From: Kiritimatiellales bacterium
GTDB lineage: Bacteria > Patescibacteriota > Gracilibacteria > Peribacterales > Peribacteraceae
Assembly: GCA_021734665.1 (NCBI GenBank)
Contig: JAIPIN010000001.1
Span: 1 to 59,759 of the forward strand
DNA: 59,759 nucleotides
Direction of reading: 5' to 3'
Below the pieces are notes generated by a model. It made no database searches. It was not told the origin of the DNA and worked only from the letters and a program-made list of their open reading frames with translations. Below, piece after piece: positions 1,435-23,736 of this stretch (positions within the stretch are counted from its first letter, which is position 1; each line of letters starts with the position of its first letter). The translations under genes and the position numbers were made by a program.

Positions 1435-1440
1435 AAAAAA

Positions 1441-1531
1441 ATTGAGAATTCAGAATGCAGAATTAAGAATTACGGTACGCTATTTATAGTACATGGCTAA
1501 TTCTACATTTTTAATTCTAAATTCTAAATTC
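1441..1531. repeat. heptad-periodic imperfect inverted repeat H1 filling the divergent GT2/tsaB intergenic region
   Basis: Left arm gagaattcagaatgcagaattaagaatta (1444-1472, GAATNNA units) vs right arm taattctacatttttaattctaaattctaaattc (1498-1531); 22/29 positions complementary in manual alignment; 25-nt loop. Confidence 0.75.
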
Positions 1532-1536
1532 TTTAA

Positions 1537-2188: not shown

Positions 2189-4906
2189 ATGTCTACGATA
2201 GATTTCTTGAACAAACTACTTGGCGATCCAAATGAGCGTGAACTTAAAAAGCTCAGGCCTAAAGTCGCAAAAGTAAAAAAGGCAACAGAGTTAGAAGATA
2301 TTAAAAAATTGCAGCTTGATGATCTTCCAAAGAAGACAGAAGAATTCAAAAAACGAATTCAAGCAGGAGAAACTGTAGATGATCTGATGCCTGAAGCATT
2401 CGCAACAGTTATCCGTGCATGTGAACTTATAAAAGGGAAAGAGGCAACACTCGGAAAGCAGAAATTTGTTTGGAACATGGTTCCGTTTGATGTTCAGATT
2501 CTTGGAGGAATAGTTCTACATGAAGGAAATATCTCCGAGATGAAAACAGGAGAAGGAAAAACGCTCGTATGTACGATGCCTGTGTATCTGAATGCATTAG
2601 AAGGGAAAGGGGTACATGTTGTTACAGTTAATGATTACCTAGCAAAGCGTGATGCAGTTTGGATGGGAATGCTTTACGAAGCTCTTGGCCTAACAGTTGG
2701 CTCTGTTTTGCATGAAAAAAGTAACGAAGAAAGAAAGCAGTCGTATGCATGTGATGTTACTTATGGGACGAATAATGAGTTCGGTTTTGACTATCTGCGT
2801 GACAATATGACCAGCTCTATTGAGCGTCAGGTTCAGCGTGGATTGCACTATGCCATTGTTGATGAAGTAGACAGTATTTTGGTAGATGAGGCACGCACGC
2901 CTCTTATTATTAGTCAGCCTGCAGATGAATCAACTTCTAAGTATATGCAATATGCGCAGATGGCTAAGAGTCTTAAAGAAAATGTTCATTACAACAAAGA
3001 TGAGAAGCAACGCGTCGCAACTCTTACAGAAGAAGGAATAAAACATATGGAAGAGCTACTTGGGGTTGATAATATTTACACGGATAAAGGTTTTGAAGAA
3101 GTGCACCATATAGAGCAAGCGCTAAGGGCACATGCAATTTATGAATTAGATGTGGATTATGTGGTTAAAGACGGTGAGGTAATAATTGTAGATGAGTTCA
3201 CAGGACGCCTAATGCCAGGACGTCGATATGGCCACGGCCTTCATCAGGCAGTTGAGGCAAAAGAAGGTGTAGAGGTTCAGCGCGAAAGTAAGACTCTTGC
3301 GACAATAACCTTTCAAAACTATTTCCGTTTATACAACAAGCTTGCAGGAATGACTGGAACGGCAAAAACAGAAGCGGAAGAATTCGAATCTATCTATGAA
3401 TTGCGAACCATTGTGATCCCAACCAATAAGCCTCTTCAGCGTGATGATAAGGCAGATGCAATTTATCGAACTGTAGAAGCAAAATTTAAAGCAGTTGCAA
3501 AAATTGCTAAGGAAAAACACGAAAAAGGTCAGCCAGTTTTAATTGGAACTACATCGATAGATAAATCTGAGGCTCTTTCTAAATTGCTAGACATAGAAAA
3601 GGTGCCTCATAATGTTCTGAATGCTAAGCAGCATGAAAAGGAGGCGGATATTGTAGCAGGGGCAGGACAAAAAGGAGCGATTACAATTGCTACCAATATG
3701 GCAGGGCGAGGAACAGACATTAAGCTAGAAGAGGGGGTTACAGATTTGGGTGGACTATGCATTATGGGTACAGAACGTCATGAAGCACGTCGAATCGATA
3801 ACCAGTTGCGTGGTCGTGCAGGACGCCAAGGAGATCCAGGAGAGAGTAGATTTTTTGTCTCTATGGAAGATGATCTTATGCGACTATTTGGTGGCGATCG
3901 ACTAAAAACAATGATGGAAAGGCTCAAGGTTCCAGATGATGTTCCGCTAGAAAATAAAATTGTCTCTCGCTCTATAGAGAGTGCGCAAAAGAAAGTAGAA
4001 GGCAGAAACTTTGATATTCGTCGTCACGTGGTTCAGTACGATGACGTAATGAACAAACACCGCGAGATTATTTATACAAGGAGACAAAAGATATTGGTTC
4101 GGCTGAAGGATGCAGAGGAGTCAAATAACTCAAATGATTCAAAGGATCAGCCATTGCATGAGGATATTATTGAAGCTCTTAAAGGGGAGGCACAGTCTAT
4201 GGTAGATGTGCATGTTGCAGGTAACGATCCAGAGAAGTGGAACTTGCAAGAAGTGCATGAGATTCTCGCAGCACTACATCCTCAGTTAGTAGAAATTGTT
4301 ACACTCGAAAAGCTCAAGGCGTTTAATGATCGTGATAAATTGCATGACTCAATCGAAAAACTTCTTTTGGATTTCTTCGATGCAAAATGTAAAGATTTTG
4401 ATCCGCAGACCGTTGCACAAGCTGAGCAAGTGGTGACACTACGCTCGATCGATACACACTGGATGTCTCATATTGATGAGATGTCTCATTTGCGTGAACA
4501 GGTTGCTTTTTCTGGATACGCACAACGAGATCCTCTTATTGAATACAAGGATCAAGGCTTCCGACGATTCCAGCAGCTTTTGGCAGCTATAGATTCGTCG
4601 ATTGTACGCACGCTTATGCAAATCGACTTCTTGCAATTCTCTCCACAGGCTTTCTTGTCTCGTGCACAGGCAGAGGTGGAGTCTTTGCAGACAAACGAGG
4701 ACCAGATTGAAGCAGAGCTTTCTCAAACCGGTGTGGCCGGATCAGCCCAGAAGCAAGTGCAAAATCCTGCCATTATGCAGAATCCTCAAGCTGTGGCCCG
4801 TCAAATATCGGCTCAAATCCCTAGAGATATAGATAAGGTTGGTAGAAATGATCCATGTCCTTGCGGATCGGGCAAGAAATATAAGAAATGCTGTGGAGCG
4901 CTATAG
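2189..4906 (+). CDS. secA: preprotein translocase ATPase SecA
   Basis: 905 aa; [38 protein letters not shown] motor motifs and C-terminal zinc finger [14 protein letters not shown]. Confidence 0.97.
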
Positions 4907-5003
4907 AGTATTAGATTAATAGAATATTGGAATATTAGGGTCACAAAGCCTTATTATGTCTGTTCCCAATATTCTATTATTCCAATATTCTATTATTCCA
5001 ATT
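4907..5003. repeat. imperfect inverted repeat H2 between secA and holB; right arm is a 16-nt tandem repeat
   Basis: Left arm ...attaatagaatattggaatattaggg (to 4940) pairs with right arm cccaatattctattattccaatattctattattccaatt (4965-5003); ccaatattctattatt occurs at 4966-4981 and 4982-4997, followed by the partial copy ccaatt. Confidence 0.75.
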
Positions 5004-7649: not shown

Positions 7650-7934
7650 TCAATCTTCTGCGAGTTCTATTTCACAGTCTCCATGGATCTGTGCTTGGCA
7701 TCCTAGGCGATCTGAATCTTCTGTGATTCCCATATTCTCTTCTCTGTCGTTTCTAGGACTTAAGTTTTCTGATCCTTTGTTTACCTTGCAGCGACACGTA
7801 GTGCAGAAACCATTACCTCCGCATGCATGCTCCATTGGTATACCTTCTCTTAAGGCTGCTTCCAACAGACTTTCGCCCTCTTTAGCTTCTACGTCTATTT
7901 TTTTACCGTCATAGGTAAAGGTGATTTTTGGCAT
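7650..7934 (-). CDS. [2Fe-2S] ferredoxin
   Basis: 94 aa; C-x5-C-x2-C ... C ligand pattern (ACGGNGFCTTCRC ... LGCQ); lies divergent to sufC. Confidence 0.85.
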   Translation of the reverse strand: MPKITFTYDGKKIDVEAKEGESLLEAALREGIPMEHACGGNGFCTTCRCKVNKGSENLSPRNDREENMGITEDSDRLGCQAQIHGDCEIELAED

Positions 7935-7939
7935 AAAAA

Positions 7940-8021
7940 GAATTGAGAATTAAGAATTGAGAATTAAGAATTAAAGTATAATCCTACTCCATTCTTCATT
8001 ATTAATTATTCATTTTCAATC
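7940..8021. repeat. heptad-periodic imperfect inverted repeat H3 filling the divergent ferredoxin/sufC intergenic region
   Basis: Left arm (gaattgagaattaa)x2 + gaattaa (7940-7974) vs right arm attcttcattattaattattcattttcaatc (7991-8021); 24/31 complementary by manual alignment; TATAAT at 7977-7982 sits in the loop. Confidence 0.75.
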
Positions 8022-8029
8022 AATAATTC

Positions 8030-8791
8030 ATGTCTTCTCTCCTATCCATCTCCAATCTCCATATTTCTGTAGATAAGCAGGAGATCATTCATGGGTTGAA
8101 TTTAGAAGTTCCTAACGGGGAAGTGCATGCAATTATGGGTCCTAATGGATCGGGGAAATCTACATTGGTGAATTCTTTGATGGGACATCCGGCTTATAGT
8201 ATTACAAGCGGCGAGGTTCTACTTGATGGCAAAGATATACTGAAAATGGAAACGCATGAGCGTGCGCAGGCTGGATTATTTCTTGCATTCCAATATCCCA
8301 AAACAATAAGTGGAGTAAGCGTGCGCAATTTTCTATTTGCAGCATATACAGCACAGATGGCGTTTAGGTATCCAGACAAAAGGAAGATTTCACCTATTAC
8401 ATTTCAAGCACTTTTGCAGCAGAAAATGGAACTTTTACATTTAGACTTTGCGTTTTCTGATCGCAATGTGAACGAAGGCTTTTCTGGAGGGGAGAAAAAG
8501 AAATTGGAAATATTGCAGATGCTTATCTTGGAACCAATATTTGCATTGTTAGACGAGACTGACTCTGGCTTGGATATAGATGCGTTAAAAATAGTTGCAG
8601 ATGGTGTGAATCTTATGAGGTCAGGAAAATTTTCGTGTCTATTAGTAACACATTATGCACGTATTCTGAATTACGTTACTCCAGATAAAATTCATGTCAT
8701 GAAACAAGGCCAGATTATAGAAAGTGGAGGAGCAGATCTGGCACAGAGGCTAGAAAAAGAAGGTTATGAGCAAATTGTAGCCAAGTCATAG
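8030..8791 (+). CDS. sufC: Fe-S cluster assembly ATPase SufC
   Basis: 253 aa; Walker A GPNGSGKST, signature FSGGEKKK, Walker B LDETDSGLD; overall SufC-like N-terminus (LSISNLHISV). Confidence 0.93.
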   Translation: MSSLLSISNLHISVDKQEIIHGLNLEVPNGEVHAIMGPNGSGKSTLVNSLMGHPAYSITSGEVLLDGKDILKMETHERAQAGLFLAFQYPKTISGVSVRNFLFAAYTAQMAFRYPDKRKISPITFQALLQQKMELLHLDFAFSDRNVNEGFSGGEKKKLEILQMLILEPIFALLDETDSGLDIDALKIVADGVNLMRSGKFSCLLVTHYARILNYVTPDKIHVMKQGQIIESGGADLAQRLEKEGYEQIVAKS

Positions 8792-12699: not shown

Positions 12700-12761
12700 A
12701 AGTTCCAAGGTCCAAGTTCCAAGGTCCAAGTTTGGCACTTGGCACTTGATACTTGGCACTT
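12700..12761. repeat. heptad-periodic imperfect inverted repeat H4 between the two permease genes
   Basis: aagttccaaggtccaagttccaaggtccaa (CCAAGKT units) vs ttggcacttggcacttgatacttggcactt; 23/30 complementary by manual alignment; 2-nt centre. Confidence 0.7.
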
Positions 12762-21669: not shown

Positions 21670-21982
21670 CTACCGGGCACCAAGTACGCAAACGCACTTA
21701 GAGATGCTCTCCCGGGCAATCAAATAACATGTTGATCTATGAGCACGATCAGCGCATGTCTTCAGAGATAATTCCCTGGTAAGGAAGTGTTCCATCCGCA
21801 GGTTCTCCTACGGATACCTTGTTACGACTTAGTCCCAATCAGCAGTTTCACCGTGGTACCGCCTCCGAAGAGTAACGGTCCTTCGGGCGCCCCTGCCTTT
21901 CATGACTTGACGGGCGGTGAGTACAAGACCCAGGAACATATTCAACGTGACGTAGCTGATTCACGTTTACTAGCGATTCCAA

Positions 21983-22021
<39 letters not shown>

Positions 22022-22381
22022 ACCGGCTTTTTGGGATTCGCTCCCCCTCGCGGGTTCGCTGCCCTCTGTACCGGCCATTGTAGCACGGGTGTTGCCCCAG
22101 GTATAAGGGACACGCAGATCTGACGTCATCCTCACCTTCCTCCGCCTTGGAGGCGGCAGTCTCCTATGAAAAAACAACATAGGATGAGGGTTGCGCTCGT
22201 TTGCTGACTTAACAGTACACCTCAAGGCACGAGCTGACGACGACCGTGCACCACCTGTCACCGAGTTCCTTGCGGCACTCCTCCCTTTCGGGTGGATTCT
22301 CGGGATGTCAAACCTGGGTGAGGTTCTCCGCTTATTATCGAATTAAACCCCATGCTCCACCGCTTGTGTGGGTCCCCGTCT

Positions 22382-22413
<32 letters not shown>

Positions 22414-22497
22414 TCCCAGGCGGTGTGCTTACCGCGTTAGCTAAGGCACGGAAATCAATTGATAATTCCCACACCGAGCACACATCGTTTAGGGCGT

Positions 22498-22531
<34 letters not shown>

Positions 22532-22916
22532 ACGCTTTCGTCCCTGAGCGTCAGTACATTCCCAGCATCTTGCCTTCGCTTTTGGCGTTCTACTATGGAT
22601 CAACGGATATTACCCCTACACATAGCATTCCAGATGCCTCTGAATGACTCAATCTCTGCAGTTTCCGGCACGTACACGGAGTTGAGCTTCGTGCTTTTAC
22701 GCCAGACACACAGAGTCGCCTACGGACGCTTTACGCCCAGTAATTCCGAGTAACGCTTGCACCTTCCGTCTTACCGCGGCTGCTGGCACGGAATTAGCCG
22801 GTGCTTTCTCCTGAGGTACCGTCAAAAATTTCGTCCCTCAGAACAGAAGTTTACGCCCCAAGGGGTGTCATCCTTCACGCGGTGTCGCTCCGTCAGGCTT
22901 TCGCCCATTGCGGAAT

Positions 22917-22948
<32 letters not shown>

Positions 22949-23183
22949 GCCGTGTCTCAGTCCCATTCTGGCTGGTCGTCCTCTCAGACCAGCTACCCGT
23001 CATAGTCTTGGTAGGCTATTACCCCACCAACAAACTGATAGGCCGCAGGCCCCTCCCGAACCGATAAATCTTTCCTCTTGCGAGGGCATCCGGTATTAGC
23101 CCATCTTTCGATGGGTTATCCCTGAGTTCGGGGTAGGTTCCAACGTGTTACTCAGCCGTTCGCCACTCGCGTCTCACTCTTGG

Positions 23184-23340
23184 TTCTAGTGTAGTTAGTG
23201 CTGTAATTCTAGTTCATGGGGGCGAGTGAATGAAAAATGAATAATGAATAATGAAAAATTATCATTACTTTCCATTTTTCATTTTTAATTATTCATTCGC
23301 GCCCTGCGAACGAGAAAGACAGTCTAATACTGCGTAAAAA
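23184..23340 (-). other. ~157-nt insertion/expansion segment in 16S helix 6 (V1)
   Basis: Closed by a 16-bp stem (23168-23183 cgcgtctcactcttgg vs 23341-23356 ccaacagtgagacgcg, 1 mismatch) between the conserved CATGCAAGTCG and GGCGAACGG..GAGTAA blocks; about 190 nt where E. coli has about 40. Confidence 0.7.
23222..23302. repeat. heptad-periodic imperfect inverted repeat H5 inside the 16S insertion
   Basis: gcgagtgaatgaaaaatgaataatgaataatgaaaaat vs ttccatttttcatttttaattattcattcgcgc (AATGAAW units); pairing register ambiguous. Confidence 0.7.
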
Positions 23341-23505
23341 CCAACAGTGAGACGCGCGTGCGACTTGCATGTGTTAGGCGCACCGCTAGCGTTCACTCTG
23401 AGCCAGGATCAAACTCTTTAAAAAGAGTTGACCTAACTTAAGTAAAAGTTAGTTCAGTCCTTTTTTACTAAAAAGAACAAAAAAAAAGAAATCGAGGTTC
23501 AATGA

Positions 23506-23576
23506 GTATTTCGTATATTGTATTTCGTATTTCGTATGAAAATCATACGAGATACTAGATACGTGATACTAAATAC
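23506..23576. repeat. heptad-periodic imperfect inverted repeat H6 in the 16S leader
   Basis: gtatttcgtatattgtatttcgtatttcgtatga (TATTTCG units) vs tcatacgagatactagatacgtgatactaaatac; 27/34 complementary by manual alignment, 3-nt loop. Confidence 0.75.
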
Positions 23577-23585
23577 AAATTTCAC

Positions 23586-23600
23586 ACTTCTCTACTCTGC
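23586..23600 (-). other. 16S leader half of the processing stem
   Basis: Exact complement of 21655-21669. Confidence 0.65.
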
Positions 23601-23736
23601 GATGGTGTGAAGGAACTTTCTTCGGGGCACCTAAATGCCCACTTGCCCTATACAACCGAGGCAAATGCCGAGAAGTTGAGGGACTTGGAGTGTCTTGCTC
23701 CCCGTGCCCTAAGGGCGTTGGGAAGTAGCTCAAGGG

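Follow-up and report, generated by a model that had tools for sequence, protein, structure and literature searches.

A heptad-repeat hairpin in helix 6 of a Peribacteraceae 16S rRNA gene and its likeness to intergenic repeats and PF05635 cassettes

The V1 region of the 16S rRNA gene in this Peribacteraceae genome holds a long hairpin whose core, built of 7-nt units, belongs to a family found throughout the genome, in the 23S rRNA gene, and around genes for PF05635 proteins. Because of that distribution, the insert is most likely a gene-less intervening sequence (IVS) and not a new part of the ribosome. The reading favored here, which we hold with moderate confidence, is that the V1 insert is a gene-less mobile hairpin of the IVS type that sits on an older extension of helix 6 and is removed by RNase III. 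IVSs, rRNA insertions in CPR bacteria, V1 inserts, and heptamer repeats have all been published before; what is new is the presence of heptad-armed hairpins inside rRNA genes. The window referred to throughout is the whole stretch of DNA that was analyzed, 59,759 nt in length.

At the gathering threshold, Rfam gives a single match in the window, a full-length bacterial SSU rRNA (RF00177, SSU_rRNA_bacteria; 1462.4 bits, model positions 1-1533), located on the minus strand at 23424..21780. The gene is 1,645 nt long, compared to 1,533 positions in the model. Its Infernal alignment is continuous and confident except for one large block at helix 6, where the terminal loop has 168 inserted residues and the consensus has 3 (at about model positions 80-83). 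This block is preceded in the alignment by GCAAGUCGCACGCGCGUCUCACU and followed by GUGAGACGCG-AGUGGCGAACGG, and it maps to window positions 23178-23345. Measured from GCAAGTCG to GGCGAACGG (23360..23165), V1 is 196 nt long. The closing stem, read from the sequence, pairs CGCGTCTCACTCTTGG with the reverse complement CGCGTCTCACTGTTGG over 16 bp with one mismatch, and it extends to a basal duplex of ~21-23 bp. When folded as a 226-nt region, the whole of V1/helix 6, from GCAAGUCG to GGCGAACGG (23165..23360, minus strand), forms a single rod-like hairpin of -88.4 kcal/mol. Dinucleotide shuffles reach -46.8 +/- 4.1 kcal/mol (z = -10.1), and none of the 200 equals the real fold.

Much of this had been anticipated by the initial annotation, which described an ORF-less insertion at 23184-23340 in helix 6 (V1), with about 190 nt between the conserved blocks, a 16-bp closing stem with one mismatch (23168-23183/23341-23356), and a core of AATGAAW heptads. 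The span it gave falls within the one placed by Infernal, V1 is indeed not of normal length, and both the stem and the heptads are there in the sequence. The sole correction concerns the strand of the 16S gene, which is the minus strand.

Three layers can be distinguished in the insert. (i) At the base lies a duplex of ~22 bp, traced by comparing five assemblies, with its 5' strand, ACGCGCGUCUCACUGUUGGUUUUU, at 23336..23359 and its 3' strand, AGAACCAAGAGUGAGACGCGAGU, at 23165..23187 (both minus strand); it is a candidate RNase III stem or the mature helix 6. (ii) Above it is a platform, an irregular middle stem of ~40-50 nt per side that was delimited by the fold and by comparison of homologues. 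The 5' strand of the platform (23298..23335, minus strand) ends in a GC clamp, GGGCGCG, at 23298-23304, and the 3' strand, CACUCGCCCCC...CACU, occupies 23188..23228 (minus strand). (iii) The tip is the heptad core hairpin at 23229..23297 (minus strand), in which four AAUGAAW heptads pair with four WUUCAUU heptads around a loop of ~9-13 nt. Tandem Repeats Finder (TRF) and an inverted-repeat search report the arms as AATGAAA x4.4 (23229-23259) and TTTTCAT x4.1 (23269-23297).

How do these layers fare in related bacteria? Homologous V1 inserts were compared in four further assemblies: a same-genus genome with 96.7% 16S identity (G002/L021), a JGI metagenome contig (L094), a Candidatus Peribacteria record (L061), and a "Patescibacteria" MAG (L076) whose 16S is 99.4% identical to the present one over 487 nt. 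A pattern scan of genome contigs had returned mostly chance matches plus L061, L076, and L071, a contig of G002, while one metagenome scan had returned a single record, L094. The basal duplex and the GC clamp (GGGCGCG/CGCCC) are common to all five assemblies. The duplex is near-invariant, with 21 pairs kept and two compensatory pairs, and the rest of the platform is homologous yet diverged in the four relatives. The core unit changes from one assembly to another: AATGAAW here and in L094, GGAAAAN in G002, and AATTGAT/AATGGAT in L061. In L076, a 79-nt deletion has taken out the core together with part of the 3' platform. Since this deletion breaks the platform hairpin, the integrity of the hairpin is not strictly maintained. 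The RNAalifold covariation term is only -1.25 kcal/mol, a weak statistic given that there are only four full-length V1 homologues.

Within the genus, V1 measures 196 nt in the present genome and in G002 but 17 nt in three other species (G004, G005, and G007); the helix 6 extension is therefore clade specific and dispensable. The two 196-nt versions align without gaps, their heptads in register. Taken together, the comparisons show that the outer ~50 nt on each side represent an older extension of helix 6 common to related species, that the heptad core alone turns over, and that this tip does so much faster than the rest of the 16S gene.

The core unit is anything but private to V1. TRF finds 385 period-7 arrays in the 1.05-Mb assembly, far above any other period, against 25 in a block-shuffled control. 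Of the 385 arrays, 266 fall mainly outside ORFs of at least 100 amino acids, although such ORFs make up 86% of the genome. Tandem 7-nt units in many copies, far above chance and mostly intergenic, give the family the character of STRR-like repeats. Hairpins form where an array stands next to one of the reverse-complement unit, as at least 60 of them do. Several intergenic hairpins of this class lie in the window itself: one with a GAATT-type unit at 1440..1532, one at 7938..8037 whose left end is paralogous to the former, one with AAGGTCC/TTGGCAC units at 12700..12761, and one of period 8 at 4903..5002. The RNase P RNA gene (C20:28167-28588) has no period-7 array inside it, the closest being ~90 nt outside at C20:28676-28705. 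The assembly, which is 83% complete, gave no tmRNA match above threshold and tRNA-like matches only.

About 30 further loci carry the V1 unit AATGAAW, and 10 hairpins have arms nearly identical to those in V1, including one at C14:4391 with a 29-nt identical run. A search with AATGAAWAATGAAWAATG, allowing up to two mismatches, gave 94 matches at ~30 loci in this genome and 14 in G002; the reversed pattern gave 0 matches in this genome. The initial annotation had proposed that the insert shares its architecture with intergenic repeats, and these counts make the case stronger than it was claimed to be. The TTTCCCC-type unit found in V1 of G002 behaves in the same way, with 72 matches in G002, many of them in inverted pairs, and 8 in the present genome. 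For this unit the usable control is the contrast between the two genomes, as such repeats read nearly alike backwards and make a reversed pattern uninformative. In both species, then, the unit at V1 is one that abounds in the same genome, which calls for exchange between V1 and the dispersed copies, whether by insertion or by gene conversion, and goes beyond isolated drift.

Hairpins of this family also occupy further places in rRNA. At 4,562 nt, the 23S gene (C27:2865-7426) exceeds its model of 2,925 positions, and tiled Infernal alignments place three inserts in it: 196 nt in the loop of helix 45, 207 nt in a hairpin loop at model positions 283-289, and 172 nt at about model position 1436. 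The 196-nt and 207-nt inserts are paralogous and heptad armed. A third heptad hairpin in the 23S gene (C27:3430-3494) is part of a ~350-nt insert close to the E. coli 2500 region, and this insert has a weak group I intron match (23.4 bits, E = 0.0025). Another group I intron in the 23S gene (42 bits) bears a LAGLIDADG ORF. In G002, an insert of ~200 nt in helix 10 of the 16S gene aligns with both paralogous 23S inserts in its arms, outer stem, and loop motif TTCTAAAGCGRCTC, so that one element family is seen at three rRNA helices in two species. Heptad arrays lie inside the 16S gene in 7 of 21 relatives, the helix 6 loop and the helix 10 loop being the two hot spots. The initial annotation had suggested that the repeat-forming process reaches rRNA, and the three 23S hairpins and the helix 6 and helix 10 inserts of the relatives bear this out.

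The leader of the 16S gene is also involved. A second heptad hairpin, with units GTATTTC/ATACGAG, was recovered by the inverted-repeat search at 23506..23576 (minus strand), 80-150 nt upstream of the 16S 5' end, where the initial annotation had placed one. At this spot L094 has an unrelated short GC hairpin, and in another relative, G010, the leader holds a near-copy of that genome's own V1 insert. The unit family of the leader hairpin recurs as the arms of a PF05635 cassette on contig C26.

What are these cassettes? PF05635 is the family of the "23S rRNA intervening-sequence protein," S23p, an Avd-like four-helix bundle. The present genome has 11 matches, all over the curated cutoff, and species of the genus have 11-21 each. 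By TRF, 6 of the 11 ORFs have inverted period-7/8 arrays on both sides, 27-50 nt from the ORF, and one further ORF has an array on one side. Reading of the flanks adds degenerate periodic inverted arms at C57, C36, and C19:3840, for a both-sided total of 9 of 11. The genes on C30 and C55 have an array on one side only, and the gene on C16, whose ORF begins 236 nt from the contig start, has one downstream only; a contig end or a repeat adjoins the cassettes of all three contigs.

The arms of the cassettes are shared with hairpins that carry no gene. Those of the C22 cassette (AATTGAY.../...AATTWTC) match the 23S insert arms, and the octad arms of the C7 cassette match the ORF-less hairpin at 4903-5002. 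The V1 core has the form expected of a cassette without its gene, namely, inverted arrays of 7- to 8-nt units as arms. None of the 11 PF05635 genes has AATGAAW arms, and the V1 unit is therefore linked to the cassettes by class and not by sequence. Among the matches listed for the relatives, no PF05635 match overlaps a 16S gene. On the strength of the shared arms, the heptad hairpins appear to be the gene-less form of cassettes that carry a PF05635 gene in the loop, and this common class ties them to the classical IVSs. The cassette link, like the older shared helix 6 extension beneath a core that turns over, goes beyond the initial annotation.

A bolder and tentative proposal, which we think rather less likely to be right than wrong, is that the heptad hairpins may be the non-autonomous form of widespread, undescribed PF05635 mobile elements that prefer hairpin loops and are homogenized by exchange between copies. 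The loops proposed as targets are those of 16S helices 6 and 10 and 23S helix 45, of introns, of leader hairpins, and of terminator-like intergenic hairpins. If the proposal is true, classical IVSs, STRR, and the heptamer excess of bacteria would share one origin, and the rRNA genes of Peribacteria would display the process under way.

How, then, could the V1 insert have arisen, and what would become of it? In the favored account, it would be a miniature ORF-less IVS that settled in the loop of an already lengthened helix 6. Its core is of one class with the intergenic hairpins, with the arms of the PF05635 cassettes, and with the inserts at helix 45 and two further places in the 23S gene, and it would swap units with the repeats present elsewhere in the genome, through transposition-like insertion or gene conversion. 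Such exchange would leave each species with its own abundant unit at V1. The insert would be transcribed within pre-16S rRNA, and RNase III would cut the long duplex, with the heptad core and perhaps part of the platform discarded and no ligation following. A candidate for the enzyme is encoded in the genome, the RNase III gene (PF14622, 137.8 bits) being found in a 248-amino-acid frame at C4:39681-40064. The 16S rRNA would then consist of two fragments, one of ~80-130 nt from the 5' end and one of ~1.4 kb from the 3' side, kept in contact through the leftover helix 6 stem and the other helices of the 5' domain. If the Coxiella IVS is a guide, the cut may lie where heptads and clamp meet, leaving the platform in the mature RNA.

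Argued by analogy, excision by RNase III seems on balance the more probable fate of the insert than retention. It is favored by the fact that the element class occupies documented IVS sites, by the apparent cost of an ~80-bp rod on the 30S body, and by the reported removal of CPR rRNA insertions from transcripts (PMC11270868). The sample in that study had Peregrinibacteria 16S genes without insertions, so its transcript evidence does not cover the present lineage. If excision does take place, the 16S rRNA would be split in helix 6 and the 23S rRNA split at multiple sites, which would bear on ribosome assembly in minimal genomes. A point that counts against the favored account is that the ungapped, in-register V1 regions of this genome and G002 also fit concerted evolution in situ without mobility.

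The insert might instead stay in place. As a retained expansion segment, the 168-nt hairpin would project from the 30S body in mature 16S rRNA as an ~80-bp helix 6 "spur," its heptad core serving as neutral filler or as a binding platform. Helix 6, the spur, is solvent exposed and tolerant of length change, which makes retention physically possible, and it is the terminal loop of just this helix that the insert replaces. Base and platform, moreover, are preserved in five assemblies and show compensatory as well as G-U changes when read as rRNA, which is what a retained segment would lead one to expect. Retained expansions in bacterial and archaeal rRNAs do exist, such as the 5S expansions described in PMC7812874. 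The remaining evidence sits less well with retention. The core varies, differing at 96.7% 16S identity and being deleted in the 99.4%-identical relative, and three species of the same genus have no insert at all. The same element class is found in 23S helix 45, where excision of inserts is documented for other bacteria (PMC4990558). It is found in 16S helix 10 as well, likewise a place of excised inserts. An A-form rod of ~80 bp would, by estimate, match the width of the ribosome in length. Retention is accordingly a serious alternative but, in our judgment, an unlikely one.

Could the arms have grown where they stand? Slippage followed by quasipalindrome correction in the helix 6 loop would need no mobile element, and the likeness to intergenic hairpins would then reflect nothing but a shared mutational bias. 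Many bacteria have an excess of heptamer repeats, for which polymerase slippage has been suggested as an explanation (PMC4692102). The equal length and common register of the two 196-nt V1 regions would suit such growth, as would the differences in copy number and unit details among close relatives. Slippage does not explain, however, why non-periodic parts accompany the arms, as do the outer stems and the TTCTAAAGCGRCTC motif common to the 23S inserts and the helix 10 insert of G002. Nor does it explain the near-copy of the G010 V1 insert in its own leader, the arms common to ORF-bearing and ORF-less copies, or a V1 unit that follows the genome-wide abundant unit in two species, for which exchange between loci is needed. 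We regard this origin as very improbable.

An intron or an assembly artifact can be set aside as the least credible of the explanations. Group I and II introns are common in the rRNA genes of CPR bacteria (PMC11270868), and the 23S gene here has its own LAGLIDADG-bearing group I intron. Against this, 168 nt of continuous hairpin cannot accommodate a catalytic core, the insert sits in a terminal loop, there is no ORF, and a chimera is unlikely given that four further assemblies, made independently, have homologous inserts in this place. The initial annotation had likewise seen no intron core and no homing-endonuclease ORF, and the group I and II models (RF00028 and RF00029) have no match at E<=1 in 23100-23700. 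Rfam matches to the insert and leader consist only of sub-threshold, miRNA-precursor-like hairpins. A coding insert was rejected as well, the longest ORFs being of 25-35 amino acids and low complexity.

The insert matters in several ways. V1 is 196 nt long where about 20-40 nt is usual, and it varies between species that are 97-99% identical elsewhere, a matter of some weight for primer design, alignment, and chimera filters applied to this CPR lineage. The published impression that Peregrinibacteria 16S genes are free of insertions is corrected. In a single 1-Mb genome, one element class occurs in ORF-bearing form, as ORF-less copies between genes, and as ORF-less copies in 16S and 23S helices and an intron. 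This provides a testable bridge between the rRNA IVSs, with their enigmatic S23p/PF05635 ORF, and the heptanucleotide repeats known as STRR or described from Xanthomonas and Nostoc.

How does the element compare with known systems? In Salmonella, Leptospira, Coxiella, and Alphaproteobacteria, classical IVSs excised by RNase III occupy helices 45 and 25 of the 23S rRNA. In the 16S rRNA, an IVS is known from helix 10 in Campylobacter and Helicobacter. Like the classical IVSs, the V1 insert lies inside an rRNA gene, takes the place of the terminal loop of a variable helix, has complementary ends that form a long stable stem-loop, and is sporadic among close relatives. It differs from the 23S examples in being located in 16S helix 6, in carrying no ORF, and in having regular arms of four heptads; its family, moreover, has tens of intergenic copies, and its excision is argued by analogy. 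Inserts of ~100 nt or more in V1 of the 16S gene, variable between copies or strains, are reportedly present in some Firmicutes, such as Clostridium paradoxum, and these would resemble the present one in size and place. For that species, PMC4859166 cites Rainey et al. (1996) for "heterogeneous intervening sequences."

The closest precedent for a meeting of heptamers and IVSs is the IVS of Coxiella burnetii, which lies in helix 45, contains an S23p/PF05635 ORF, and has two to three tandem GACAGAT heptamers, variable among strains, just upstream of that ORF; the 5' cut by RNase III falls at the first GACAGAT repeat (PMC4990558). Beyond that description, the literature consulted yielded no paper tying heptamer repeats to PF05635 or to IVSs, no report of heptad-armed, gene-less IVS-type elements in helix 6 or helix 10 of CPR 16S rRNA, and none uniting rRNA inserts, intergenic heptamer hairpins, and PF05635 cassettes as one class in one genome.

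Heptamer arrays as such have been described with the units GGGAATC in Xanthomonas and GGGGAYT in Nostoc. They prefer about four copies, are mostly intergenic, vary rapidly in length, and form 70-75 convergent inverted pairs; no link to rRNA IVSs or PF05635 is made, the word "intervening" occurring 0 times (PMC4692102). The present arrays are like these in their tandem 7-nt units, number of copies (about four), intergenic location, and inverted pairs that form stem-loops. In cyanobacteria, STRR heptamers are said to occur in a helix of RNase P RNA, which is likewise a case of heptads inside a structured-RNA gene and lends some support to retention. Unlike the STRR, Xanthomonas, and Nostoc repeats, the units here are AT rich and fall into many sequence families within one genome.

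Insertion-rich rRNA in CPR bacteria goes back to Brown et al. (2015), as relayed in PMC11270868. The survey itself (Tsurumaki et al. 2024, PMC11270868) judged short, ORF-less, non-intron inserts at 23S IVS sites to be "probably IVS"; it does not mention heptad architecture or a link to intergenic repeats, and the word "hairpin" occurs 0 times. As in the genomes surveyed there, both 16S and 23S are rich in inserts here; unlike in that survey, the 16S genes of the present lineage bear inserts, at two hot spots. A last comparison is with MITE and REP elements, which the heptad hairpins resemble in being short, gene-less, palindromic, and multicopy, with larger ORF-bearing relatives. The difference is that the hairpins have no terminal inverted repeats of fixed sequence and that no transposase was seen in association with them; their arms are periodic, and the unit differs from family to family.

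The host genome of the window (assembly G000, 1.05 Mb) carries 11 PF05635 genes, which encode Avd-like "23S rRNA IVS proteins." They are located on contigs C57, C26, C7, C47, C36, C16, C30, C19 (two genes), C22, and C55, and several relatives encode 11 to 24 per genome. Most of the 11 are bracketed by inverted arrays with a repeat unit of 7 or 8 nt, positioned roughly 30 to 50 nt away; the genes on C30, C55, and C16 have a periodic array on one side only. Two of these cassettes also have in common a sequence of about 50 nt, AAGCTGATTTCAGAGCTTTTAGGTGGTTTCTAGCCCCCAAAATTTTCCATTA, found at C16:77-128 and at the 3' end of C30, near 19591. In both cases, it breaks up the upstream arm region beside a contig end, possibly as the terminus of a repeated insertion element that caused the assembly to break there.

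Where do such arrays occur without a gene between them? Within the window, a period-8 (octad) hairpin lies between two genes at 4903-5002. Its arms match those around the PF05635 gene at C7:6900-7214; it is a copy of the C7 cassette that lacks the ORF. Two heptad hairpins have nearly identical starts (GGCATAAAAA[A/G]AATTGAGAATT...), in the stretches 1430-1475 and 7930-7975, and are flush with gene ends. The start of each immediately adjoins an apparent minus-strand start codon (CAT).

The 23S rRNA gene of the same genome (L031; C27:2865-7426, 4562 nt) is outside the window, on a separate contig from the 16S gene. It contains a group I intron at about 4259-4884 that scores 42 bits, slightly below the Rfam cut-off, and carries a 137-aa LAGLIDADG ORF. 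Another heptad hairpin lies within a second, weak group I match (3261-3622; E = 0.0025). Besides these matches, the gene has three hairpin-loop inserts of 172 to 207 nt. A scan of the whole genome found no tmRNA above the Rfam cut-off of 47 bits, only tRNA-like partial matches reaching 44.8 bits at best; because the assembly is 83% complete, this absence may be a gap.

Among relatives, the 16S sequence of L076 (JAHIYH010000031.1) is 99.4% identical to that of G000 over 487 nt. Its V1 region has lost 79 nt, comprising the heptad core and a portion of the platform's 3' strand, and the 5' strand of the platform no longer has a partner. The deletion is either genuine, as an intermediate of decay, or the result of misassembly. 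The 16S gene of a member of the same genus (L018, genome G004) has a 327-nt insert in helix 10. Finally, in a member of the same family (L019, genome G010), the V1 insert is 89 nt long, and a near-identical second copy is located in the 16S leader, about 330 nt upstream. G010 is an independent example of a V1 insert with a paralogue outside the rRNA.
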